Shown here: positions 4,702-64,000 of the stretch, piece after piece
Layout of the letters: each line of letters begins with the position of its first letter
How positions within the stretch are numbered: the stretch's first letter is position 1
Assembly: GCA_964608605.1 (NCBI GenBank)
Contig: CAZSOS010000001.1
Coordinates: 207,452-271,451, forward strand
Length of the DNA stretch: 64,000 bases
Reading direction: 5' to 3'
Source of the DNA: an uncultured Candidatus Saccharibacteria bacterium
Lineage (GTDB): Bacteria > Patescibacteriota > Minisyncoccia > Phycocordibacterales > UBA918
Notes under the pieces: model-generated
Seen by the model: only the letters and a program-made list of their open reading frames with translations
Told to the model about the DNA's origin: nothing
Databases searched by the model: none
Position numbers and translations under genes: made by a program

Positions 4702-6381
4702 ATGAAAAATTTTATCAATACCAAGGTATTCCTCTTTGGCATCATCGCTGCCTCTACCGCAGCGGTCATGGTTTTTGTGGTCATACCTCAGTTTCCTCAG
4801 GTTAACAGTTCTATCGATGGCCTCAGCACTTCTATCGACAAGGTAGAGGCCTGGGGTGATTGGTCTGGTTCCGGAGACTACGGTTCCGGTTGTTGCGACT
4901 ATACCGGTGATAGTTATGATACTGGATGGGGCGACTGGTCTGGCACCGGCGACTATGGTTCCGGTTGTTGTGACTCCACTAGCGGTGGCGGCTACGGCGG
5001 AAGTTACACTCCTTCCACCCCCTCTACTCCAGACACCCCGACTTACACGCCTCCGACCTACGTTCCGCCTCCGACTCCGGCAGCCGTCTGTCATTATTTG
5101 ACAGCTAGTGCCTCGTCGGTGAAGTACGGCGGTGATACTGTCTACCTCTCATGGAGCACTAGCAACGCTGGATCGGTCTCGATCAGCGGCATCGGTAGCG
5201 TGGCCGCGAGTGGTAGTAACCACCCGGTATCCGTCAGCTCTGACACCACGTTCACTCTGACCGCCACTTCGGCCGGAGGCAACGGTTCTTGCGCCGTCAC
5301 TATCACGGTTCAGCCGCCTTTGGCCGCCGTTTGTAACTACCTTAATTCCAGCCACGTGAACGTGCCCGTCGAGGGCGCTACCGTGACCCTCTCCTGGTCG
5401 ACCACCAACGCTAGCTCGGTCTCGATCAGCGGCGTCGGTAACGTCTCTCCAGTGAATCAGGGACAGGTCAATGTCTTCGTTAGCGGTAACCGCACCTTCA
5501 CTCTGACCGCGGTCGGAACCGGAGGCAACGGTTCCTGCACCGTCTCTATCGGTACGAACATCACCAATAAGGATATCCCTCGCTGCGAATACCTGCGCGC
5601 CAACGTTGGCAACAACGTCAAGCGTGGCGATCGGATCACCCTTACTTGGGCGACCACCAACGCTGACATGGTCCACATCAGCCCGATGCCGGGAGGCGTC
5701 TCCCGCAACGGCTCCGAGACCGTGATCCTCGAGAACGACGTCAACACCTTCACTCTGACCGCTCGTAACTTCCAGACCAACAACGAAGCTACCTGTACGG
5801 TGACCGTGCGCGTCGATAAGGAGGACAAGACCCCTACCTGCGACCTCAAGGTCTCCAAGTCCCGCGTCAACCGCGGCGAGAAGGTAACCCTTTCTTGGAA
5901 GACCACCGACACCGAGGGTCTCCGCATCCGCGACGACCAGGGAAAGACCATCTTCGACATCTCGCACTACAGCGTCTCTGAGCGCCGCCACTACAAGACC
6001 GGCGAAGTGGACGTCATCGTCAACCGCAACACCGAGTTCATCATGAACGTTCGCGGTGAAGACAACTCCAGCCGCACCTGCCGCGTCGAGGTTACCGTTG
6101 GCGGACTCGAAGTCTACGAGAAGCGCGATCAGGGATACGTCATCGCTTTGACCCAGGTGCCTTACACCGGATTCGAAGCTGGCGCCTTCCTGACCTTCCT
6201 CTTCTACGCGGTATTGACCCTCTGGGCTCTCTTCATCGCTTACGTGCTCGTCATCAAGAAGGGCACTGTGCTTGGATTCTCTCTCTACGGCGCTACCGCC
6301 GGCTTGAGCGAGACCGACGTGGAGAACCGAAAAAAAGTAGAAGCGCTGGTAGCGAAGTACAGTGGACAGAACCAGAAGTAG
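4702..6381 (+). CDS. surface protein with Cys-rich tandem repeats, four Ig-like repeats and a C-terminal PYTG-TM-KKG segment
   Basis: N-terminal signal anchor, 2x GDWSG(S/T)GDYGSGCCD repeat, P/T linker, four ~85-aa repeats each bounded by Cys, then QVPYTGFEAG plus a hydrophobic stretch and KKG. Confidence 0.75.
   Translation: MKNFINTKVFLFGIIAASTAAVMVFVVIPQFPQVNSSIDGLSTSIDKVEAWGDWSGSGDYGSGCCDYTGDSYDTGWGDWSGTGDYGSGCCDSTSGGGYGGSYTPSTPSTPDTPTYTPPTYVPPPTPAAVCHYLTASASSVKYGGDTVYLSWSTSNAGSVSISGIGSVAASGSNHPVSVSSDTTFTLTATSAGGNGSCAVTITVQPPLAAVCNYLNSSHVNVPVEGATVTLSWSTTNASSVSISGVGNVSPVNQGQVNVFVSGNRTFTLTAVGTGGNGSCTVSIGTNITNKDIPRCEYLRANVGNNVKRGDRITLTWATTNADMVHISPMPGGVSRNGSETVILENDVNTFTLTARNFQTNNEATCTVTVRVDKEDKTPTCDLKVSKSRVNRGEKVTLSWKTTDTEGLRIRDDQGKTIFDISHYSVSERRHYKTGEVDVIVNRNTEFIMNVRGEDNSSRTCRVEVTVGGLEVYEKRDQGYVIALTQVPYTGFEAGAFLTFLFYAVLTLWALFIAYVLVIKKGTVLGFSLYGATAGLSETDVENRKKVEALVAKYSGQNQK
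4850..4990 (+). repeat. intragenic ~78-bp tandem repeat encoding GDWSG-GDYGSGCCD
   Basis: Two near-identical DNA units (tggggtgattggtctgg... / tggggcgactggtctgg...). Confidence 0.7.
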
Positions 6382-6512
6382 TCTGTCAGATCCCCACGAT
6401 CTGCCCGACCAAGGTCTACGAGCTTCCAGCGCCTACCGAGGATAGGCCAGAGCCTTACATAACCTATTATCACGACGATACTCCCCCGAACTTGCCTATA
6501 GGCGAGAAGCCC

Positions 6513-6547
6513 GACTACTTGAAGTAGTCCCACAAGTCAGACTTGTG
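6513..6547. repeat. two adjacent palindromes GACTACTTGAAGTAGTC and CACAAGTCAGACTTGTG
   Basis: Perfect odd palindromes 3' of the surface-protein gene. The second shares its core with 41265. Confidence 0.6.
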
Positions 6548-6567
6548 TAGACGGGCGGGAGCGAGAA

Positions 6568-44996: not shown

Positions 44997-45063
44997 AATT
45001 TAGTAGATTGTATGGTATTAGACCCCAATAAACAAGTTCGAATAACCCCATTGAAATCATTGG

Positions 45064-48000
45064 TTGTCTATGTATAATTCGCACATAATGAACGGCAAGA
45101 ATGTTACTGCCGCCGTACTGGTCGCTATACTCAGTGTCGGCCAGATCGCCTACGGAGCGACCGAAATATCTGAAGACATAGAGGGTGATATCACCTGGAC
45201 CGTTGCCAATAGTCCGTATATAGTCACTACCAACATAGGCTTCAGCCCTATCACTCCCGGCGCGACGCTTACAATAGAACCGGGGGTTGAGGTTAAATTT
45301 TCTCCTAATGCCAGTATCAGCATATTTGGCAATCTGATATCGAAAGGGGATGAAAACATGCCCATAAAATTCACTTCAACGGAACCCGACACTGCTTGGA
45401 GAATCAATATTTTTGACTCCCAAAATAGTGAATTACTCCATATCATCAACGGCTCCACTCTGGGTGGCATCGCGTCATACAATTCAAACATTCACGCGCG
45501 CGACCTCTCCGGCGACAGTGAGCTGATGTTGTTTGACGGAACCTCTGATCTTAAAGATATTTCTTTCACGAACAACAGGCTTTTTATCAACGGTGGATCG
45601 ACGATCATCAATGACCTAAATATCATCGGCGGTGGCGCGAGTTTTTTCGATACTAACGTCACGCTTCAAAACGCCAATATCAGCCATACAAATTCTTCTC
45701 CCGCCATCATCACTTCCGATCGAGCGGTCAGTTTTAATAACGTATACATAAACAACGCCGAGCATGGCATTATCGCCAGCAACGTACCTAACCTACAGCT
45801 ACATAACGCGGTCATTTCGAACGTTGTCAATAATGGACTGACCTTCGATGGAGGGTTGGCTAATTTGTCCAATGTATCCATAGAAAATTCCTACTATGGC
45901 GCCGGTCTTCAGGGCAGTCAGATATCCCTAGACGATCTCCATATTAATAATATCCAAGCCCCGGCGTTGCAGGTTAATGCTGATCTGACCAATATCTCCA
46001 ATTCTTCCTTCGCGAATGGTGCCAATACCGGCGTGAGTGTCAGCGGCGCGTCAGCCGAACTGCAAAATGTCACGATCACTGGTTTTCCAAACGCGCCAGC
46101 GCTATTGCCAAGTACCGCGAGCCTTCACGGCCAGCAATTGACTCTAAAGAACAACCTGATCGGTATTTATAACTACTCATCCGGCACCACCACTATCAGG
46201 CAAAGCAATATCAGCGACAATACCCAATTCGGAGCCATTGGCAGTAGAAGTGTATTAGATGCCAGAAATAACTTCTGGGGACACGCGGCCGGGCCGACAA
46301 CCGGCGACACTGGAAATCCTGAAACCATCATCAAAGGTGACGCGGTCGTAGGCAATGTGATGTATGAACCTTGGTTGGAGGAGTTCTGTGAATCCGCCTG
46401 TCATTCTAATATCATGTTTTTGCCGGGGATCATGTCATCTCGATTGTATGATGGGAGCGAACAACTTTGGGAGCCGGGGATATTCACCCGCGACAGAGAA
46501 TTTGAAGCGTTGTATCTGGACGCGGCTGGCAAAAGCATCCGCGATATTCATACGAAAGACGTGCTTGATAACGGCTATGCCTACGGCAAGCTCGTAGAAG
46601 ACCTGAATGAACTTAAAGCTGCTGGAACCATCAACGACTACGAGGCTGTGCCGTACGACTGGCGACTGTCGATAGAAGATATTTTAAATACCGGTACAAA
46701 GCGTGAAGACGGCTCTATCATCTATGGTAGCGCTACCTCAGAACCATATATTGAGAGCGCTCTCCGTCGCCTAGCCGCCAATTCCAAATCAGGCAAAGTG
46801 ACCATCATAGCGCACTCCAACGGCGGACTGGTCACCAAAGCCCTAATAAACCGCCTCAACAGTGAGGCGTCCGACCTTATCGATAAGGTTATCTTCGTCG
46901 CCGTCCCGCAACTCGGCACGCCGCAAGCTATCGGTGCCTTGCTTCACGGCTACAACGCCGGACAACCCGGCTTGTATCCGTTCATACTATCGCCAGAGCG
47001 CGCTCGGGACCTGGCCATCAATATGCCAATGATTTATCAGCTCATGCCGTTCGCTGATTATTACAATAGCGACGGCGCAACTATTTATACGCCTTATGTA
47101 AGCTTTGAGGACAGTGCCGCAACACAGTCATTCATAGACAAGTATGGGTACGACGTTAGACACGAACATTTGTATTCTTTCCTCATTGGTTCCGAAGGTC
47201 GCTCAACTCCAGCCTACGATGATAGAGAAAATCCAGCCCTAGCCAACGCAACGCTATTGGCCGAAGCCCAAACATTGCAGCAAGTCATCGATTCTTCCTG
47301 GACGGTCCCGGAGGGAATTGAGGTACACCAAATCGCTGGCGTTGGTGAGAGAACCTTGGCAGGCATTATCTATCAAACTTTCCCCGACTGCACAGAACGT
47401 GATTTCTTATTCCGCTGCCAACAATATGATAATCGTCTTACTTATTACCCAAACACGGTTATCGATGGCGATGGGACTGTAGTAGTACCTAGCGCGCTGG
47501 CAATGAGTACCACTAGCGATTCTGTGAAGAGGTGGTGGTTGAACTTACAGTCTTACAATGGAGCAACACCGAGTTTTTTGAGAGAGCAACACTCTGACAT
47601 ACTTGAAGTGGACGAATTGCGTCGTTTCATCATGGAAAATCTCCTTAAAGACGACCTGGCCAGTACACCAATCTTTATATCTTCTTCTGCTCCATACTTG
47701 GAACAGGGTAACCGTCTGGTCTTCACCCTCCATTCTCCGCTCGCACTTTCAGCCACCGACGAGCACGGGAATATAACCAACGAACAAGAAACCAGCATCC
47801 CCGGCGCTACCTACACCCGCTATGGCGAAGTTCAGGTTATCACAGTACCGACAGGCACCAAATTCACCCTGGTTCTCACTGGCGAAGCTGAAGGATCATT
47901 CACTCTGGAAATGGAGGAGTTCGAGGGTGACGACTTGGTGGATATCAGCACCTTCTCGGCCATACCTTCCAGCACCGATACTCTGGCTACCATCTTTTTC

Positions 48001-48369
48001 ACTGATGGTTCTCTGGAAAATGTGGGCGAACTGCAAATAGATCACAACGGCGACTCCATCGTAGACCTCACCTACACGCCGATACTCGGCGAGACAGTAA
48101 CCGCGCCCGACCCCATCGCCATGATCGTGGAGCGAATTATTTTAGGTGGTAGTAGCGGAGGTTCGCTACCGCTCGGCCGCGTGCTCGGAGTTTCTGATAA
48201 CACGCTCACTCTTGAACAACTGGCCCATATCGTCAAACAGTTACATATTGTCGTGACTGCACTCTCTCACCTAAGGGGCCAAATACCCGAAGAACAGTAT
48301 GCGACAATCTCTGGCCAAGTCCTCACGATATTAAGCACACTTGAGATGTTGCTACAGAGTAAAAGTTAG
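45064..48369 (+). CDS. large secreted protein: N-terminal parallel beta-helix repeats fused to an LCAT/PGAP1-like alpha/beta-hydrolase (lipase/acyltransferase) domain
   Basis: Signal peptide. PbH1-like repeats (NVxISN...). Central FLPGIMSSRLYDG, YDWR and IIAHSNGGLV motifs characteristic of the LCAT-like lipase family. GC is lower than in neighbouring genes. Confidence 0.75.
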   Translation: MSMYNSHIMNGKNVTAAVLVAILSVGQIAYGATEISEDIEGDITWTVANSPYIVTTNIGFSPITPGATLTIEPGVEVKFSPNASISIFGNLISKGDENMPIKFTSTEPDTAWRINIFDSQNSELLHIINGSTLGGIASYNSNIHARDLSGDSELMLFDGTSDLKDISFTNNRLFINGGSTIINDLNIIGGGASFFDTNVTLQNANISHTNSSPAIITSDRAVSFNNVYINNAEHGIIASNVPNLQLHNAVISNVVNNGLTFDGGLANLSNVSIENSYYGAGLQGSQISLDDLHINNIQAPALQVNADLTNISNSSFANGANTGVSVSGASAELQNVTITGFPNAPALLPSTASLHGQQLTLKNNLIGIYNYSSGTTTIRQSNISDNTQFGAIGSRSVLDARNNFWGHAAGPTTGDTGNPETIIKGDAVVGNVMYEPWLEEFCESACHSNIMFLPGIMSSRLYDGSEQLWEPGIFTRDREFEALYLDAAGKSIRDIHTKDVLDNGYAYGKLVEDLNELKAAGTINDYEAVPYDWRLSIEDILNTGTKREDGSIIYGSATSEPYIESALRRLAANSKSGKVTIIAHSNGGLVTKALINRLNSEASDLIDKVIFVAVPQLGTPQAIGALLHGYNAGQPGLYPFILSPERARDLAINMPMIYQLMPFADYYNSDGATIYTPYVSFEDSAATQSFIDKYGYDVRHEHLYSFLIGSEGRSTPAYDDRENPALANATLLAEAQTLQQVIDSSWTVPEGIEVHQIAGVGERTLAGIIYQTFPDCTERDFLFRCQQYDNRLTYYPNTVIDGDGTVVVPSALAMSTTSDSVKRWWLNLQSYNGATPSFLREQHSDILEVDELRRFIMENLLKDDLASTPIFISSSAPYLEQGNRLVFTLHSPLALSATDEHGNITNEQETSIPGATYTRYGEVQVITVPTGTKFTLVLTGEAEGSFTLEMEEFEGDDLVDISTFSAIPSSTDTLATIFFTDGSLENVGELQIDHNGDSIVDLTYTPILGETVTAPDPIAMIVERIILGGSSGGSLPLGRVLGVSDNTLTLEQLAHIVKQLHIVVTALSHLRGQIPEEQYATISGQVLTILSTLEMLLQSKS

Positions 48370-48387
48370 ATAGATTATAATGAGATT

Positions 48388-48807
48388 ATGGAATTTTTCT
48401 CTAAGAAAAACACTCTCGTCGTTAGCCTTTTAGGTACGATCGTCTTGTCGTCACTGACGATAGTGTCTTTTTCTGAAATCTGCCGCTATAGCCAAGCATG
48501 TGTTTCCTTATTTGTAAGGTATGATCTTTGGGATTGGGCAAATTATATCTTGATAACACCACTCATTCTGCTGCTCTCTCTTTTGACTTACTGGCTTAAT
48601 CAGAGAGTCTTTGAATCCTGGAAAAAGTTTGCTGTGATTGGGGTTCCTATTGTGCTGGTTCTGACATACTTCATCACCCGTCCGACCGGCGGCAGTAACT
48701 TTTTTACGATGGATTGGTCGTTGTATTTCTTAGCTGTTATTTACGGTCTCTTTTTCTTGATCTCCTTGATCATCATTATGGTCTCCGTACTTCGGAGTCG
48801 ACGCTAA
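48388..48807 (+). CDS. 4-TM membrane protein (hypothetical)
   Basis: AT-rich ORF 19 bp after the large secreted protein gene, with four hydrophobic helices. Confidence 0.5.
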   Translation: MEFFSKKNTLVVSLLGTIVLSSLTIVSFSEICRYSQACVSLFVRYDLWDWANYILITPLILLLSLLTYWLNQRVFESWKKFAVIGVPIVLVLTYFITRPTGGSNFFTMDWSLYFLAVIYGLFFLISLIIIMVSVLRSRR

Positions 48808-48812
48808 AGAAC

Positions 48813-49346
48813 TCATCGAGCATCTGGTCGCGACTCCACAGCGTTCATGATCTTGGCCTTGAGGGCGCGAGGGTCGGGAAGGTGGTCCATATGGAATTCT
48901 TCCTCGCCGTGGCCGGCGGTTTCAGCGCGGAGTGTGCCGAAGTCGAGCAAGGTGGGCAGGATGCCATCGATCTCCACGTTCACTTCCTGCAAGCGCTCCA
49001 GGCGGAAGCTGGCGAGACTCCGACGCCAAAAGCCTTTTTGATTGGCGATGATCAGTCGGTGGTTGGTGATGACCAGAACGTCGAGATAGTAGTCGGTCCA
49101 AGCGGTAAAAGCAGCGATCCAGGTAAACAAGATCCACACCGCGTAGCCGTAGATCAGGTGCGGAGTATACGAAGCGAGATCAAAAGGGAAGACAGTTTGA
49201 TTGCTGCTCACAAATATCAAGAGGATCGGTGGGATCAACGCCACCAGGAAGAAACCCGCCAATTGCACGATGATAAGAAACTTGTGGCGGCGTGTGACCG
49301 CCAACACCTCCTCTCCAGCTTCCAGGTTGACGCGGTCAATTAACAT
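48813..49346 (-). CDS. bacterial PH-domain (bPH_2/YdbS-like) membrane protein
   Basis: Two N-terminal TM helices followed by a PH-like domain (VLITNHRLIIANQKGFWRRS). Confidence 0.65.
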   Translation of the reverse strand: MLIDRVNLEAGEEVLAVTRRHKFLIIVQLAGFFLVALIPPILLIFVSSNQTVFPFDLASYTPHLIYGYAVWILFTWIAAFTAWTDYYLDVLVITNHRLIIANQKGFWRRSLASFRLERLQEVNVEIDGILPTLLDFGTLRAETAGHGEEEFHMDHLPDPRALKAKIMNAVESRPDAR

Positions 49347-49539
49347 ATTGCAGACTTAAAAACATCACGCCAAGACAAATGATGGCACCGCCGAGGAAGA
49401 TCAAGAGCGCCAAACTAGCGTGACCTTGCTTGGTGCCGTACTGATACCAGTGATAGCCGAAGATCCAGGCATAGCCGACAGTGAGCGGCAAAACCGCATA
49501 GAAGAATAGGGTAGCCACCAGCGGTATCAGGGTTTCCAT
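49336..49539 (-). CDS. small 2-TM membrane protein (hypothetical)
   Basis: Likely start METLIPLVATLFFYAV. Tightly packed between prmC and the bPH gene. Confidence 0.4.
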   Translation of the reverse strand: METLIPLVATLFFYAVLPLTVGYAWIFGYHWYQYGTKQGHASLALLIFLGGAIICLGVMFLSLQYVN

Positions 49540-49546
49540 GCGGATA

Positions 49547-50425
49547 TTATGACATGAGTACACTGAAGCGTTCGATGCCGTACTGGTCGGGGTGGGTGGA
49601 GGCGCGGAAGCCTTTGGCTTCCGCGCTTTGTCGTATGGTCGTCGATTGTTCAGGCTCATGCTCGATCCATAGCTGGCCGCCGGGATTCAGATATTCGGCA
49701 GCGGTGTTTATGATATCATTGATGATATCAAGACCATGTTTCCCCCCATAGAGGGCCAGCCGTGGTTCAAATTTTTTCACCGAGGTTTCCGCTCGGTCCA
49801 ATACTGGATCAATGTATGGAGGATTGGTCAGGATAAAGTCATATCGAAACTCGCGGAAATGGCGATCTTCTTCGTTGCGGGTCCCCGACGGCTCCTCACC
49901 ATATAGCGCATATGGCTCCTTCTCCGTCGTACCCGCGCCTTGAAGCTCATCCATTTCCGCGAGTTTCGGTCGTGTCTTGGGAACGTTTTCAAAAAGATCG
50001 CCTCCGAAGACGCGCGAGCGTTCACCGTCGATACCGTTCATCTCTAAATTTTTACGGATAGTGGCGTGATGGCCCGCGTCGATCTCGGCGAGATCGACGC
50101 GGGCCATCGGCACGGCCTTAGCGACCGCCACCCCGACACAGCCGGAGCCGGCACACAGATCGAGCACGCGGGAGTTCCGTCTAGTCTGACGAGCCGAGAT
50201 CGTGGCGATAGCTTGTTCCACCCAATACTCGGTCTCGGGGCGGGGGATAAGCGGTTTAGAATCCAGGTGAATGCAACAACCGAGAAAGGGGACATGGCCG
50301 ATGACGTAAGCCAATGGTTCGCCAGATCGCAGGCGCTCTAAGTCGGCTCGGAAAGCTTCACTTTCCGCGCCTTCATGCTTCTCCGAAAGCAGCCATCTTT
50401 CTTCTTGATTTAGACTCATTTTCAT
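49547..50425 (-). CDS. prmC: release factor glutamine N5-methyltransferase
   Basis: SAM-binding DLCAGSGCVGVA and the NPPY motif. Contains an internal insertion. Confidence 0.88.
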   Translation of the reverse strand: MKMSLNQEERWLLSEKHEGAESEAFRADLERLRSGEPLAYVIGHVPFLGCCIHLDSKPLIPRPETEYWVEQAIATISARQTRRNSRVLDLCAGSGCVGVAVAKAVPMARVDLAEIDAGHHATIRKNLEMNGIDGERSRVFGGDLFENVPKTRPKLAEMDELQGAGTTEKEPYALYGEEPSGTRNEEDRHFREFRYDFILTNPPYIDPVLDRAETSVKKFEPRLALYGGKHGLDIINDIINTAAEYLNPGGQLWIEHEPEQSTTIRQSAEAKGFRASTHPDQYGIERFSVLMS

Positions 50426-50478: not shown

Positions 50479-50886
50479 ATGACGACCATCTTTCTCAACC
50501 TCGGTCCTCGGCAGAGCGGTGGTGAACTGCTTGCCGACGCGCCGTTCAGAGCCTTCGTGAAGTTCAAAACCGCTCACGTAAAGGATGGCGGCGTGGCGGT
50601 TTTGAAACTGAAAGAGGGCGAAAGCCACATCGGTACTGCCACCATCGACTGGTCCGAGGCCGAGGCGCGGAGACATCCGAAGCAAGGCGGCAAGTATCTG
50701 GTCGGAAACGGATCCCTCGACGAGTTCGACCTGCAAACAAAGCGCGTGTTTCGTGACTGGCAAGTTGCCGACCTTATCGCCAACTCCATGAGCAAGGCTG
50801 GGTGGATCTACCACTGCTATGACCACGGCATCAGCGACAAGGAGAGCCATGACATGTTCGAAGCATGGATCGAGAAAAACCTATGA
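50479..50886 (+). CDS. hypothetical protein, paralog 1 (135 aa)
   Basis: GGAGAAG RBS and its own terminator. Its C-terminal DMFEAWIEKNL and internal IDW resemble the next gene. Confidence 0.6.
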   Translation: MTTIFLNLGPRQSGGELLADAPFRAFVKFKTAHVKDGGVAVLKLKEGESHIGTATIDWSEAEARRHPKQGGKYLVGNGSLDEFDLQTKRVFRDWQVADLIANSMSKAGWIYHCYDHGISDKESHDMFEAWIEKNL

Positions 50887-51021: not shown

Positions 51022-51432
51022 ATGGGTCTGTTGCTGGACATTCGCGGACCGAAGCTGGATTCTACATTCCGAGTCTTCGCCAACGTGCCGACCATCCTGC
51101 CGATCCGGTCTGATGGCGGTTCGGTCAGGATCGACCTTTATCACCACAGTTTCGAACAGGGATATGCCCTGATCGACTGGGGGCAGGTCAGAGAAGCACA
51201 CAACGCGCTCATCGGTACCTACGTCTTCGCTGACGCCGCCATCACCGAGCTCTACACCCACAAGGATGAGTCCGAGAAGCAGATCTTGCCGCTTCTCATG
51301 GGGGCCATGCTCAACTGCGGTTGGCATCCCGAAGTGGGGTCGGTGAATTCGACCAAGCATAACAACGATCCGGATTTCCAGTCCTGGATCCGGCGACATC
51401 TGGCGCGACCTCGTCACGCCAGAGCCATATGA
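51022..51432 (+). CDS. hypothetical protein, paralog 2 (136 aa)
   Basis: GGGAGA RBS, C-terminal DFQSWIRRHL and its own terminator. Confidence 0.6.
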   Translation: MGLLLDIRGPKLDSTFRVFANVPTILPIRSDGGSVRIDLYHHSFEQGYALIDWGQVREAHNALIGTYVFADAAITELYTHKDESEKQILPLLMGAMLNCGWHPEVGSVNSTKHNNDPDFQSWIRRHLARPRHARAI

Positions 51433-60557: not shown

Positions 60558-60657
60558 ATGTATTCTACCACAATAATCATGCTTGAATATTGAAAGAATG
60601 TGGATTTTCTGTAGAATAGACGCAACTTGGTCGATATCGCCGATCCAAGTAGTACAT

Positions 60658-61007
60658 TCCCCTGTAGCTCAGCGGTAGAGCAGTCGACTGTATGTATTGC
60701 AGCTTCCTAGGGAAACCTAGGTCGAAAAGAAGGTGAATTGTCCGAAGCGCGCAAGCGCAACGGATCCGGAACCGCAAGGTTCTAGGACTGGAAACCCAAA
60801 CGTGTAGTCGTGGGCAATCAGCAGCCAAGTCCTCAGAGTAATCTAAGGAAAGGTTCAGAGACTATCCCTAACGGGAGTAGCCGAGCAAGAAATTGCTCCA
60901 GGCGAAGCGCCTTCCACCCCTTTCGGGTGATGATATAGTCCACGCCCTTTGGAAACATCGGGATCAGTGTAATCGATTGGTCGCAGGTTCGAATCCTGCC
61001 GGGGGAG
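60658..61007 (+). tRNA. tRNA-Asn (anticodon GUU) interrupted by a group I intron between positions 35 and 36
   Basis: The 5' exon TCCCCTGTAGCTCAGCGGTAGAGCAGTCGACTGT and the 3' exon TAATCGATTGGTCGCAGGTTCGAATCCTGCCGGGGGAG splice to a canonical Asn tRNA (U1:A72, G73, loop CUGUUAA) closely matching E. coli tRNA-Asn. Confidence 0.8.
60692..60969 (+). ncRNA. group I self-splicing intron (278 nt, no ORF)
   Basis: R element GTTCAGAGACTA at 60853-60864 and S-like GATATAGTCC at 60933-60942, giving P7 GACUA/UAGUC. The 5' exon ends in U and pairs with IGS GCAG through a U-G wobble. The intron ends in G. Confidence 0.75.
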
Positions 61008-61008
61008 C

Positions 61009-61045
61009 AAATGAAAAAGCACCGTTTTGGTGCTTTTTCATTTGC
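61009..61045 (+). terminator. intrinsic terminator
   Basis: AAATGAAAAAGCACC-GTTTT-GGTGCTTTTTCATTT. Confidence 0.75.
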
Positions 61046-61192
61046 GAGCCCGGAGAAAGTGCCAGTGGCACTTTCGTCAGGATTCGAAGACCTTGCCAGA
61101 TATTTTGTGACGCAAAGAAACAAAATATCGACAAGGTGTACCGCCCATGTAATGGGAGAAATTCCTGCCGGGGAGCTGAGGTATAATTTTAT

Positions 61193-61699
61193 ATGTTAGG
61201 TTTTGTATCTATGGAATTTTTAATACTTTCCCTCGTAATACTAGGAGTAGTGGTACTGGCAGTAGTTACATTAAAGCTCTTTTCAATATCAAAGACCGAC
61301 CAACCACTCCCTTACCGAGCTAAACAATATTTCTTTTCTCGCTCGGAGCAAGAGTTTCTTAGAATTTTAAACGAATCACTCGATAGGCAACGCTTTGTGA
61401 TTTTTCCAAAAGTGAGACTTGCTGACTTTATAGAAGTGACTATTAGAGGACGTGAGTACCAAGGTTGGTTGAGTAAAATTAAATCAAAGCATGTCGACTT
61501 TCTAATTTGGGATGTTAAAAATCACAAAATAGCCTTAGCAGTTGAGTTAGACGGTAAATCCCACAACATTGAACCTATGCAAACAAGAGATGAGTTTGTT
61601 AACCGGCTATATGACAAGGTGGAAATAAGATTAGTAAGAGTCAAAGTAGGTAGCAATTTCTTGACAGAAGCAAAAATTATATCTGAATCTTTAAGTTAA
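61193..61699 (+). CDS. DUF2726-like (restriction-endonuclease-fold) membrane-anchored protein
   Basis: AT-rich. N-terminal TM, then FPKVRLADFI...HVDFLIWDV...LAVELDGKSH, which resembles the DUF2726/NERD-like nuclease fold. Confidence 0.6.
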   Translation: MLGFVSMEFLILSLVILGVVVLAVVTLKLFSISKTDQPLPYRAKQYFFSRSEQEFLRILNESLDRQRFVIFPKVRLADFIEVTIRGREYQGWLSKIKSKHVDFLIWDVKNHKIALAVELDGKSHNIEPMQTRDEFVNRLYDKVEIRLVRVKVGSNFLTEAKIISESLS

Positions 61700-61741
61700 T
61701 TAGACTGAGGCGTATACTAAGCACAATAAAACTTCTGGCTG

Positions 61742-62791
61742 ATGAAAAAGGAATTCCCTGAATTTTATAGTTTAAGTAAAGACGAGATAACCGCACTATG
61801 GGAGGGGTGCATATTCGCTTTTGATGCAAATGTCCTTCTTAATCTCTACAGATATTCTCTAGACACTAGCGATAATCTAATCTCAATCTTAAAAAATTTC
61901 TCCGACCGCATTTGGATGCCACACCAGTTCGCTCTTGAGTACCAAAGGAATCGAATGGTGGTGATAGAAGGTCAGCGGGTTAAGTACATGGGGAGTATAA
62001 AGAATATTCTAGGTGAACTGGAGGTCGTAGAGGAACTCCTAGGTAACTACTACGGGAAAATGCCTTTTGACATCAAGAAGATAAAGAATGATTTGTTGAA
62101 GTCTCAGGAAGAGTACCCTGGATGCACATCAGAGGACAAAATGCGGGAGGAAATCGACGCACTTTTCGAGAATAAGGTAGGTAGTCCTTTCGACGAAAAA
62201 AGAATGCTCGCAGTGATAGACGAGGGCAAAGAAAGATACCAAAAAGAAATGCCGCCGGGTTACTGCGACGCGTTAGAAAAAGATAAGAATGATCCCACTA
62301 AGACTCGGAAATATGGAGACCTTATTGGGTGGCTTCAAATGATCGAGAAAGCTAAAACCGAGAAGAAACCCCTTGTATTTATCACCAGTGAGCGAAAGGA
62401 AGACTGGTGGCAAATCGTAAAGGGAAAAACTGTTGGTCCTAGGCACGAATTATTGAAAGAGTTTCAGAAAGAAACTGGAGAAGCATTTCATATGTATGAT
62501 ATGAAACGCTTTCTTGACTATGCGAAAGAAAAACACACAGTCAAAAAGAAAACTATTGATGAAGTTATAAAAATTGATGAAGTGTATAATAACAGCGTCG
62601 CAAGTGAACTTGGGGTAGTTGTTGGTGGTGATACTCCCACTTTGTCAGACTATCTAGTGAACCCTGTAGGTTGGCCAATTACGGAAGCATCATCACAAAC
62701 TTCATCTGTGGAAAAGGAGTCCGCTTGGATTATTGTGCCAGAAAATGATGACGGCACAGGAAATCTGGCAACAGGTGACAGGGAACAATGA
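61742..62791 (+). CDS. PIN-like domain protein (DUF4935-type) with uncharacterised C-terminal half
   Basis: AT-rich. N-terminal IFAFDANVLLNLY (PIN strand 1 Asp), YGDLIGW and ITSERKEDWW acidic positions. 349 aa. Confidence 0.6.
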   Translation: MKKEFPEFYSLSKDEITALWEGCIFAFDANVLLNLYRYSLDTSDNLISILKNFSDRIWMPHQFALEYQRNRMVVIEGQRVKYMGSIKNILGELEVVEELLGNYYGKMPFDIKKIKNDLLKSQEEYPGCTSEDKMREEIDALFENKVGSPFDEKRMLAVIDEGKERYQKEMPPGYCDALEKDKNDPTKTRKYGDLIGWLQMIEKAKTEKKPLVFITSERKEDWWQIVKGKTVGPRHELLKEFQKETGEAFHMYDMKRFLDYAKEKHTVKKKTIDEVIKIDEVYNNSVASELGVVVGGDTPTLSDYLVNPVGWPITEASSQTSSVEKESAWIIVPENDDGTGNLATGDREQ

Positions 62792-62795
62792 ATCT

Positions 62796-63074
62796 ATGAA
62801 GACTTATTTGATAACATACGACTTAATTAAGCCGGAAACTAGCGCGGATTACGTAAAGCTTTTCGCTAATATAAAATCACATCTTGGCTGGGCCAAGCCC
62901 ATGAGATCAGTCTGGTTGATAAAAACTAACAGGTCTAGGGATGAAATCATGAAATTGTTGAGATCAGCAGGTGACAGCAATGATAAATTTTTAGTGATGG
63001 AAGTTACAAGGGAATGGATAGCTTTTAACCTTCCAGCAAGTGTCATTACATGGATGAAGGATGAGATTAAATAA
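62796..63074 (+). CDS. small alpha/beta protein (93 aa), translationally coupled partner of the PIN-like gene
   Basis: Its ATG overlaps the upstream TGA (ATGA). MKTYLITYDL...DYVKLFANIKSHLGWAKPMRSVWLIK resembles the beta1-alpha1-beta2 pattern of Cas2/VapD-like folds, but there is no CRISPR context. Confidence 0.5.
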   Translation: MKTYLITYDLIKPETSADYVKLFANIKSHLGWAKPMRSVWLIKTNRSRDEIMKLLRSAGDSNDKFLVMEVTREWIAFNLPASVITWMKDEIK

Positions 63075-63202
63075 TTTATTAAGATTTTAGTTGTTTATAA
63101 AAGTTCTAACGTCCTCCCAAGCGGTGAGCCAATAAAATCACCTTATTTTACAAGGTGATTTTTTGATATCCAAATAGGGTTCAGAACTGATATAATAAAA
63201 AT

Positions 63203-63598
63203 ATGAAATTAGATGCAATAAGCGTAACCAGCACAGACTTAGAAAAATCAGCCAAGTTCTATTCCTTACTAGGTTTTACTTTCCCTACATTTGGGAAGGA
63301 TGAAAAACATATAGAACCCCAAACAAAAAATGGCGAGGTGAGACTTATGATAGATACTGCTGATTTGATTGAAAGTATCACTGGCTCAAAACCAGTGCCT
63401 CCAAATCATTCTTCGTTTGCAATACTGTGTGAGCAACCTTCAAAAGTAGACGAGGTCTGTATAAAAATAAAAAATGAAGGGTTTGTTGTCATAAAAGAAC
63501 CTTGGGATGCATTTTGGGGACAAAGGTATGCAATTGTTCAAGACCCAGATGGTTATATGATTGATTTATTTGCACCGCTAGAAAATAGTACCACTTAG
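63203..63598 (+). CDS. VOC/glyoxalase-bleomycin resistance family protein
   Basis: 131 aa with the glyoxalase-like beta-alpha-beta-beta-beta module pattern. AT-rich. Confidence 0.7.
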   Translation: MKLDAISVTSTDLEKSAKFYSLLGFTFPTFGKDEKHIEPQTKNGEVRLMIDTADLIESITGSKPVPPNHSSFAILCEQPSKVDEVCIKIKNEGFVVIKEPWDAFWGQRYAIVQDPDGYMIDLFAPLENSTT

Positions 63599-63861
63599 TT
63601 CTGAAGAGCAATCTCCGAAAACATTTCAGAAATCTTAGAGTACTCAATATCTCTTTTAATTTGAACCCAATTGAGAGTTCTGAATGCGTCCACTAGAGGG
63701 AGCTAGTGAAAAAGACCCTTACAAAGGTCTTTTTCGTTTGCTCCGTGGGAGAGAATCCTCTCGGAAAGTTTTCATACGTGTTACCAAACCGCCGATATTT
63801 CCCCAAGAAATACTTACCGAAGCTGAATCCTTGCCACCCTGAAGTGTTAAAATAATTAACA

Positions 63862-64000
63862 ATGAAAGATATCTTTAAACTCGCCGCCGCCATCGCGATC
63901 TCCGAATTCGCCGGCATCATCGGTTCGGCGTTCACCGTTCCGGCCATTCCGGCGTGGTATGCGACTCTCAATAAGCCCGCTCTCAACCCACCCAGCTGGA
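63862..64000 (+). CDS. TspO/MBR family protein (5' partial, runs off the window end)
   Basis: AWYATLNKPALNPPSW matches the conserved TspO N-terminal motif. GC returns to the chassis level here. Confidence 0.6.
   Translation, partial: MKDIFKLAAAIAISEFAGIIGSAFTVPAIPAWYATLNKPALNPPSW

Follow-up and report, generated by a model that had tools for sequence, protein, structure and literature searches.

The stretch of DNA analysed here (the window) comprises 64,000 nucleotides (nt) from an uncultured Candidatus Saccharibacteria bacterium (contig CAZSOS010000001.1 of assembly GCA_964608605.1), a member of the Patescibacteria, which are very small bacteria that depend on hosts. It represents core chromosome, and its genes include gyrB, thrS, dnaE, smc, rnr, rpoB, rpoC, dnaG, an addA-like gene, hisS, prmC and fba. 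Our interest lies in two genes that follow hisS on the forward strand. The first encodes a large, predicted secreted enzyme whose central domain can be assigned with good support to the LCAT/LPLA2 structural family, and the second encodes a small protein with four predicted transmembrane segments that we call the partner (Table 1). An earlier reading of this DNA (the original prediction) had proposed that the pair forms a block of low guanine-plus-cytosine (GC) content that encodes a secreted lipase fusion and a membrane protein.

Table 1. Positions of the enzyme gene, its predicted parts and the partner gene in the window.
Feature	Position	Strand	Remarks
Promoter-like site TTGAAA-16-TATAAT	45051..45078	+	Putative promoter; consensus scan, 11/12 matches
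Probable enzyme coding sequence	45088..48369	+	1093 amino acids; secreted, multidomain, LCAT-like; most orthologues begin MNG(K/R)
Sec-type signal peptide MNGKNVTAAVLVAILSVGQIAYG	45088..45156	+	Predicted cleavage before ATEIS
Right-handed parallel beta-helix	45157..46344	+	Residues ~32-427; ends in conserved NNFWGxxxGP cap motif
LCAT/LPLA2-fold alpha/beta hydrolase	46396..47679	+	Residues ~445-872
FLPGIMSSRL	46417..46446	+	Residues 452-461; F, P and G invariant in 45 diverse relatives
YDWR	46654..46665	+	Residues 531-534; invariant across 148 sequences
Nucleophile elbow AHSNGG	46810..46827	+	Residues 583-588; H, S and G invariant in 148 sequences; predicted catalytic Ser585 at 46816-46818
DGDGTVV	47464..47484	+	Predicted catalytic acid Asp803 at 47470-47472; G and D invariant
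Predicted catalytic His843	47590..47592	+	Invariant in 148 sequences
Beta-sandwich	47707..48084	+	Residues 882-1007; invariant LHSP motif and acidic D-x-N/D-G-D loop
Gly/Ser-rich linker	48106..48204	+	Predicted disordered; pLDDT <50 at model residues 1017-1045
C-terminal amphipathic helical hairpin	48211..48363	+	Model helices 1048-1068 and 1074-1098
Four-transmembrane partner protein	48388..48807	+	139 amino acids; starts 18 nt after the enzyme stop codon

The large gene occupies an uninterrupted open reading frame (ORF) of 1101 amino acids that runs from a TTG codon at 45064 to position 48369, and residues are numbered here from that TTG (residues of the AlphaFold2 model equal ORF residue numbers minus 2). 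Within its central region the original prediction had noted the motifs FLPGIMSSRL, YDWR and AHSNGG and had placed the protein in the LCAT/PGAP1-like family. All three motifs are present, and a search with the Pfam hidden Markov models (HMMs) upheld the assignment, with LCAT (PF02450) matching residues 500-808 at 58.4 bits (gathering score 21, E-value 9.5e-16). Weaker Pfam matches near the nucleophile elbow involve DUF7379, DUF900, PGAP1 and other alpha/beta hydrolases. The hydrolase extends to approximately residue 872, given that the predicted catalytic histidine lies outside of the Pfam match. No NCBIfam model matches the enzyme, the partner or the two downstream ORFs, and a single-sequence phmmer search against the PDB returned chance Fab matches only.

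Residue invariance was judged over a set of 148 representatives that reaches down to ~31% full-length identity, and it is this set that provides most of the conservation data in Table 1. The FLPGIMSSRL segment aligns with ‘VIFIPGIMGTNL’ of the lipase Tle4 and presumably occupies the oxyanion-hole strand-loop position of this lipase class, and AHSNGG aligns with HSMGG of Tle4 and the class-2 lipases. An AlphaFold2 model of the enzyme, computed from an alignment of 29 homologues, has a mean predicted local distance difference test score (pLDDT) of 86. When the hydrolase portion of this model was compared with known structures by Foldseek, LPLA2 was the best match (E-value 2.6e-9, TM score 0.68), LCAT came next and Tle4 followed. 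A sequence profile of the family searched against the PDB gave Tle4 as the top match (E-value 1.2e-4), with an alignment that takes in the oxyanion motif (FxPGI) as well as the elbow (HSxGGLVA). The domain has the alpha/beta-hydrolase core with the cap and membrane-binding subdomains that are specific to the LCAT family. As read from conserved sequence, it also has the Ser-Asp-His set, with the serine in an A/G-H-S-x-G elbow and the aspartate in a GDGTV-like motif. There is therefore good support for placing the central domain within the LCAT/LPLA2 structural family and for a predicted intact Ser-Asp-His set. Enzymes of this family form an acyl-serine intermediate from a glycerophospholipid and pass the acyl group either to water, which yields lysophospholipid and fatty acid, or to a lipophilic alcohol. 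As LCAT, LPLA2 and PDAT illustrate, the family is as much one of acyltransferases as of hydrolases.

The enzyme is predicted to be exported. Its N-terminus reads VTAAVLVAILSVGQIAYG and then A, with an AxA-type cleavage site between the two, and an A-x-A-like site is kept in homologues. This signal peptide (model residues ~10-28), which would be cleaved during export, is the sole hydrophobic segment of the large protein. The four cysteines of the enzyme are arranged as two close pairs (C442/C446 and C776/C785), as is expected of an exported protein, and a DsbA-like gene is located near the locus. The NCBI model of the gene product (P0001, 1099 amino acids, on a 332-kb contig), which is 100% identical to the window enzyme, begins at the ATG at 45070. 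We consider that translation probably starts at the ATG at 45088 (MNGK...), because a promoter-like site lies at 45051-45078 and because most orthologues begin with MNG. The −10 box of this site ends 9 nt upstream of the probable start codon, and no Shine-Dalgarno sequence is visible 5′ of 45088. Transcription might begin approximately 2-3 nt before this ATG, which would give the enzyme a near-leaderless or leaderless mRNA.

The N-terminal domain that follows the signal peptide is modelled as a continuous series of short strands over model residues ~30-425, mostly with pLDDT values above 90, and these form a right-handed parallel beta-helix. The Pfam repeat HMMs miss this domain in the window protein (NosD, the only match, reaches 11.8 bits and is below the cutoff of 23.6), whereas several orthologues do match PF13229. 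Its closest fold matches include alginate C5-epimerases (AlgE6 and AlgG), PL6 lyases, capsule depolymerases, phage tailspikes, NosD and the adhesin PfbA. The helix is the least conserved part of the enzyme, with column identities of 24-43% compared with 60-77% in the hydrolase, and its body has zero invariant residues even among the 29 closest homologues, with conservation confined to the N- and C-terminal caps. Because the body is devoid of invariant residues, the domain is more likely to serve in binding or as a spacer than in catalysis. We also considered that the helix derives from a phage tailspike, and the failure to find a relative among the viral contigs searched counts against this origin.

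Beyond the hydrolase, the original prediction had described a further ~300 amino acids whose function it could not assign. Such a region is present, and it now resolves into a beta-sandwich (residues 882-1007), a Gly/Ser-rich linker and a helical hairpin (residues 1050-1100). The beta-sandwich yields a pLDDT of 91 when modelled alone. Its comparison with TerD-type calcium-binding beta-sandwiches and with the C2/PLAT-type domains of lipases gave scores too low for a claim of homology, and calcium-dependent membrane binding by this domain is offered as a hypothesis only. The hydrophobicity of the C-terminal hairpin, whose hydrophobic moment was also calculated, is too low for a membrane span.

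The partner has four hydrophobic segments, and clusters of lysine and arginine at its N-terminus, in its second loop and at its C-terminus predict that both termini are on the inside of the membrane. In this predicted topology the first outside loop carries two cysteines and the inside loop carries a VFxxWKKFA motif. The proteins encoded at this position in different loci are homologous and share a conserved cysteine and the VFxxWKKFA motif, with the most divergent example recovered by hhalign at a probability of 93%. Among the 14 loci over which pairing was counted, a partner homologue is located directly 3′ of the enzyme gene in 13, including loci from Moranbacteria and Taylorbacteria, and enzyme and partner are presumably co-transcribed. 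Neither Pfam nor NCBIfam contains a model that matches the partner. In the locus whose enzyme is the closest relative of ours (L001, 71% identity), the partner gene is tandem-duplicated and fused (positions 5671-6561 of that locus), and the resulting protein of 296 amino acids has eight predicted transmembrane segments and keeps a VFxxWKxFA motif in both halves. The beta-helix, the signal peptide of a secreted 1101-residue product and the four-transmembrane protein downstream had all been anticipated by the original prediction, and each is borne out by these data.

An exhaustive HMMER search with the region from the hydrolase to the C-terminus as query reveals that the enzyme belongs to a large family. 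Counted as cluster representatives at 50% identity, the family has 3,261 members at E<=1e-3 and 1,526 at E<=1e-30. In nearly every case the matched core consists of the hydrolase and the beta-sandwich, with 30 to 870 residues of variable sequence on its N-terminal side. In a census of 45 sequences subsampled from the 148 representatives, all 45 match the Pfam LCAT model. The N-terminal region of some carries Beta_helix or NosD domains, and that of others carries surface domains of the MBG or Ig-like type. Few members carry organism names, and every one that does comes from the Patescibacteria (Saccharibacteria, Moranbacteria, Taylorbacteria and Woesebacteria). Their annotations read ‘hypothetical protein’, ‘alpha/beta hydrolase’ or the evidently automatic ‘pimeloyl-ACP methyl ester carboxylesterase’. 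Our search of the literature on LCAT, lipases and phospholipases in Saccharibacteria and Patescibacteria found no description of this family.

The pair differs from its surroundings in base composition, as the original prediction had claimed in relation to hisS and prmC. The GC content and the GC content at third codon positions (GC3) are 0.489 and 0.540 for the enzyme gene and 0.414 and 0.507 for the partner gene, compared with 0.575 and 0.733 for hisS and 0.547 and 0.584 for prmC. Relative to the 38 chassis ORFs of the window that serve as reference (mean GC3 0.727, standard deviation 0.070), the z-scores are −2.7 for the enzyme and −3.1 for the partner, and the GC3 of each is below that of every one of these ORFs. 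Thus, the two observations on which the original prediction had staked its case, an LCAT-family HMM match and a composition distinct from that of the chassis, were both made. Its framing of the pair as a low-GC block, in the sense of an island of deviant composition that some genomes might lack, is not borne out. Five relatives (L001, L002, L003, L007 and L008) carry the pair at the corresponding position, immediately behind hisS and in the same orientation, and no mobility genes flank it. Where the contigs extend far enough, these loci share dsbA-like, uppP and RNase-H-like genes upstream and bPH, prmC and ABC transporter genes downstream; the bPH gene was not found in L003, and the L007 contig ends too early for its bPH gene to be judged. 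No mobility genes, tRNA genes or repeats were found at the borders of the pair in the window, where the nearest tRNA genes are 11 kb away and no dedicated repeat search was made.

The five syntenic relatives differ widely in GC content (locus values of 0.375, 0.475, 0.517, 0.519 and 0.552), and the GC3 dip recurs in each of the high-GC relatives, with values of 0.55-0.62 for the enzyme and 0.37-0.51 for the partner compared with 0.72-0.81 for the flanking genes. The dip is weaker in L003, which has a GC content of 47%, and is essentially gone in L002 at 37%. Because the dip recurs in every high-GC relative, the low GC content is a standing property of the orthologous pair and not the mark of a recent import. 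We believe that the term ‘low-GC block’ should be replaced by a description of the pair as ancestral, fast-evolving and recombining surface genes.

The speed of this evolution is evident from the neighbouring genes. In comparisons with L001, L003 and L007, the adjacent tRNA-synthetase, RNase-H-like, ABC-transporter and aldolase genes encode products that are 80-94% identical, whereas the partners are only 33-52% identical, and the enzymes are 48-71% identical across all five syntenic relatives. Synonymous sites are saturated at such distances. Identity is also distributed unevenly within the enzyme. Its beta-helix is 83% identical to that of one homologue (P0002) and 46% identical to that of another (P0003), whereas its C-terminal tail is 33% identical to the former and 70% identical to the latter. 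Furthermore, the closest match to the window partner (65% identity) is encoded beside an enzyme that is only 49% identical to ours (P0009). Mosaic identity of this kind, seen in the comparison with L001, L007, L008 and L009, suggests that recombination has occurred within and around the gene. Our best guess is that the mosaicism and the low GC3 both arose as Saccharibacteria lineages, some of lower GC content among them, repeatedly exchanged alleles by homologous recombination. Weaker codon selection on surface genes that evolve fast may contribute as well. We rejected the idea that the helical tail co-varies with the partner, given that the tail of P0009 is only 30% identical to ours even though its partner is the closest.

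Given these features, we judge it somewhat better than an even bet that the two genes form a vertically inherited, fast-evolving surface module of Patescibacteria, in which a phospholipase or acyltransferase would act on foreign membranes and would be accompanied by an immunity-like or anchoring partner. The enzyme would leave the cell by the Sec pathway with cleavage of its signal peptide, and its variable N-terminal module, here the beta-helix, could then act as an adhesin-like targeting domain or spacer that binds glycans and docks on a glycan-rich surface, most plausibly the envelope of a host or prey cell. There the Ser-Asp-His hydrolase would form an acyl-serine intermediate as it cleaves an acyl ester bond in a glycerophospholipid. 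Transfer of the acyl chain to water would amount to phospholipase A activity, with a lysolipid and a fatty acid as products, and transfer to an acceptor alcohol would amount to transacylation. The beta-sandwich, possibly in a calcium-dependent manner, might help to hold the enzyme at the lipid interface. The partner, located in the membrane of the producer, would most likely shield it in the manner of an immunity protein, or might instead tether or receive the enzyme or its products. The outcome would be an attack on the membrane of a host or neighbour, the harvest of lipids by an organism that is unable to make them, or both. The host-membrane effector role put forward by the original prediction is plausible in this context, and it fits the absence of a known route of lipid uptake or breakdown in Patescibacteria (PMC11665869).

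It is important to note that we infer the lipid substrate, the target membrane and the role of the partner, and several observations weigh against this proposal. The substrate may instead be another kind of ester. The gene resides among housekeeping and envelope genes (uppP and the dsbA-like gene), and a function in the producer's own envelope would fit this setting equally well. No similarity of the partner to a known immunity or transport family was found, and the most distant of the 14 loci (L012) is without an adjacent partner. In addition, the annotation tables for Southlakia epibionticum ML1 (Cell 2023), the one Saccharibacterium that has been studied by genetics, list no PF02450 protein, and the neighbours of hisS differ there. 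Judged by those tables, at least one epibiotic Saccharibacterium can apparently do without the module, which may be typical of environmental lineages.

A more ambitious proposal is that many Patescibacteria use the pair as their lipid-acquisition device, the element missing so far. The surface enzyme would dock on the host envelope through its variable N-terminal module and convert host phospholipids to lysolipids and fatty acids, and the partner would import or flip these products into the membrane of the symbiont or would shield that membrane. Patescibacteria are without lipid biosynthesis. A 2024 perspective states that no mechanism of lipid uptake or breakdown has been identified in them, and that the lysolipids of neighbouring bacteria are a possible source (PMC11665869). 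For Vampirococcus, a secreted phospholipase has been proposed to have a role in lipid acquisition (PMC8080830). We regard the lipid-acquisition proposal for the pair as unlikely. If true, it would account for the reported lysolipid-rich membranes and for the building of membranes without fatty-acid and phospholipid synthesis. An exported enzyme of a class that makes lysolipids from phospholipids is a concrete and testable candidate for the missing lipid step. This candidate is backed by the wide spread of the family (at least 1,526 clusters at E<=1e-30), by its fusion to variable adhesin-like modules and by its conserved membrane partner. Should the protein prove to be no more than a generic esterase, or to serve the envelope of its own cell, the outcome would amount to routine annotation of a hypothetical protein.

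We hold it to be similarly improbable that the enzyme remodels the envelope of the cell that makes it, for example as a transacylase that moves an acyl group from a phospholipid to a lipoglycan, a lipoprotein or a wall polymer bound by the beta-helix, with the partner as a co-factor or substrate presenter. The core, syntenic position of the locus beside uppP, whose product recycles undecaprenyl phosphate, and beside the DsbA-like gene agrees with such a role, as do the established acyltransferase capacity of the LCAT family and the obligatory membrane partner, which would suit a pair formed by an enzyme and an integral-membrane co-factor. However, housekeeping envelope enzymes are usually conserved, and this enzyme and especially its partner diverge far faster than their neighbours. 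The exchange of the N-terminal module among adhesin-like domains across the family and the absence of the family from the Southlakia ML1 tables also argue against a housekeeping function in the envelope.

The fold neighbours of the beta-helix raise the prospect that the protein acts on polysaccharides, with the helix as a depolymerase, lyase or epimerase and the hydrolase as a carbohydrate esterase (deacetylase), which together would degrade acylated polymers of the host capsule or wall. The best of these neighbours are alginate epimerases and lyases, capsule depolymerases and tailspikes, and combinations of an esterase with a beta-helix are known among polysaccharide-degrading enzymes. We nevertheless find this interpretation rather doubtful, since the lack of any invariant residue in the helix body among the 29 closest homologues speaks against a catalytic groove and since many family members are without any beta-helix.

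Highly doubtful, in our estimation, is a pure toxin-immunity pair for interbacterial killing with no nutritional role, a Sec-exported analogue of the Tle4-Tli4 pair of the type VI secretion system (T6SS). The partner is polytopic by prediction and apparently unrelated to Tli4, secretion-system genes were not found nearby, and each locus has one enzyme-partner cassette, with no unpaired extra partners and no arrays of pairs. Moreover, such a pair overlaps with the surface module that we favour and would differ from it in purpose alone.

The least credible account, that the pair is a recently acquired foreign island imported horizontally as an accessory effector cassette, can call on the lowest GC3 values among the chassis ORFs (0.54 and 0.51 against 0.727) and on a domain-by-domain mosaic that suggests allele exchange, but it is contradicted by the conserved position behind hisS in five relatives with genomes of 37% to 55% GC, by the GC3 dip common to all high-GC relatives, by borders at which no integrase, transposase, tRNA or repeat was found, by the lack of a relative among viral contigs and by the quite different appearance of the true low-GC island at 61-64 kb, so that at most it would describe allele swapping by homologous recombination inside an ancestral locus.

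Several neighbouring elements were noted in the window. A gene for a bPH_2 membrane protein and an overlapping ORF for 107 amino acids with two transmembrane segments (48813-49659, reverse strand) are convergent with the partner gene, from which only 5 nt separate them, and both are conserved in L001, L002 and L008 with identities (63-83% and 46-68%, respectively) that are far above those of the enzyme pair. Between prmC and the ABC transporter gene are two adjacent ORFs of ~135 amino acids each (50479-50886 and 51022-51432, forward strand) that belong to no Pfam family. Each shows weak similarity to the counterparts of the other in relatives, with identities of 60% and 44% for the first and of 27% for the second against L003, and the two look like a small pair of tandem paralogues. 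The island at 61000-64000 has a GC content of 0.39-0.41 and a GC3 of 0.28-0.42 against a chassis GC content of 0.57. It follows a cluster of tRNA-Ala, tRNA-Pro and an intron-containing tRNA gene and encodes a DUF2726 protein (82.6 bits), a PIN_8 protein (180 bits) and a glyoxalase-family protein. A horizontally acquired or defence-related origin is far more plausible for this DNA than for the enzyme pair. The intron-containing tRNA gene (60652-61007, forward strand) is apparently split at 60667-60962 by a group I intron, which the Rfam model RF00028 matches with 53 bits (cutoff 50). Its exons, TCCCCTGTAGCTCAGCGGTAGAGCAGTCGACT... and ...AATCGATTGGTCGCAGGTTCGAATCCTGCCGGGGGAGCA, form a 7-bp acceptor stem by eye, ARAGORN made no call, and a hairpin terminator follows at approximately 61012-61045.

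Three known systems invite comparison with the module. The beta-helix resembles the surface proteins of the PbH1/CASH group (PF13229/NosD), such as tailspikes, capsule depolymerases, epimerases and PfbA, in predicted fold, in size and in its NNWWG-type C-terminal cap. Those proteins are extracellular, as the window protein is predicted to be, and an association with glycans is probable for it also. Unlike them, the window helix falls below the Pfam cutoffs, is without conserved catalytic residues and is hypervariable, and other modules take its place in paralogous members of the family.

The hydrolase shares with LPLA2 (PLA2G15) and LCAT the order of its motifs, namely FxPG, YDWR, the AHSxGG nucleophile, the GDGTV aspartate and a distal histidine. 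Both these enzymes and the window enzyme are secreted or luminal, by prediction in our case, and would act at lipid interfaces. However, identity is only ~15-18%, the window enzyme is bacterial (from Patescibacteria), its hydrolase is set between a beta-helix of 400 amino acids on one side and the beta-sandwich and helical tail on the other, and it is coupled genetically to a four-transmembrane partner. Its activity is a prediction from these resemblances. The enzyme class is already known, and what is new relative to the searchable literature is the combination of a beta-helix, an LCAT-like hydrolase, a beta-sandwich and a helical tail, along with a large, Patescibacteria-centred family and a near-obligatory four-transmembrane partner.

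The genetic arrangement is reminiscent of the T6SS phospholipase effector Tle4 (PA1510) of Pseudomonas aeruginosa and its immunity protein Tli4 (PDB 4r1d). The window enzyme differs from Tle4 in its Sec signal peptide, in its additional beta-helix and beta-sandwich domains, and in its setting among hisS, bPH, prmC, uppP and dsbA-like genes rather than T6SS genes. Tli4 is periplasmic, whereas our partner would span the membrane four times and has no Pfam or NCBIfam match, a distinction that we draw without a direct alignment to the Tli4 sequence. Even so, in both systems a lipase gene stands beside a small, conserved and fast-evolving partner gene, and in both the presumed target is the membrane of another cell.

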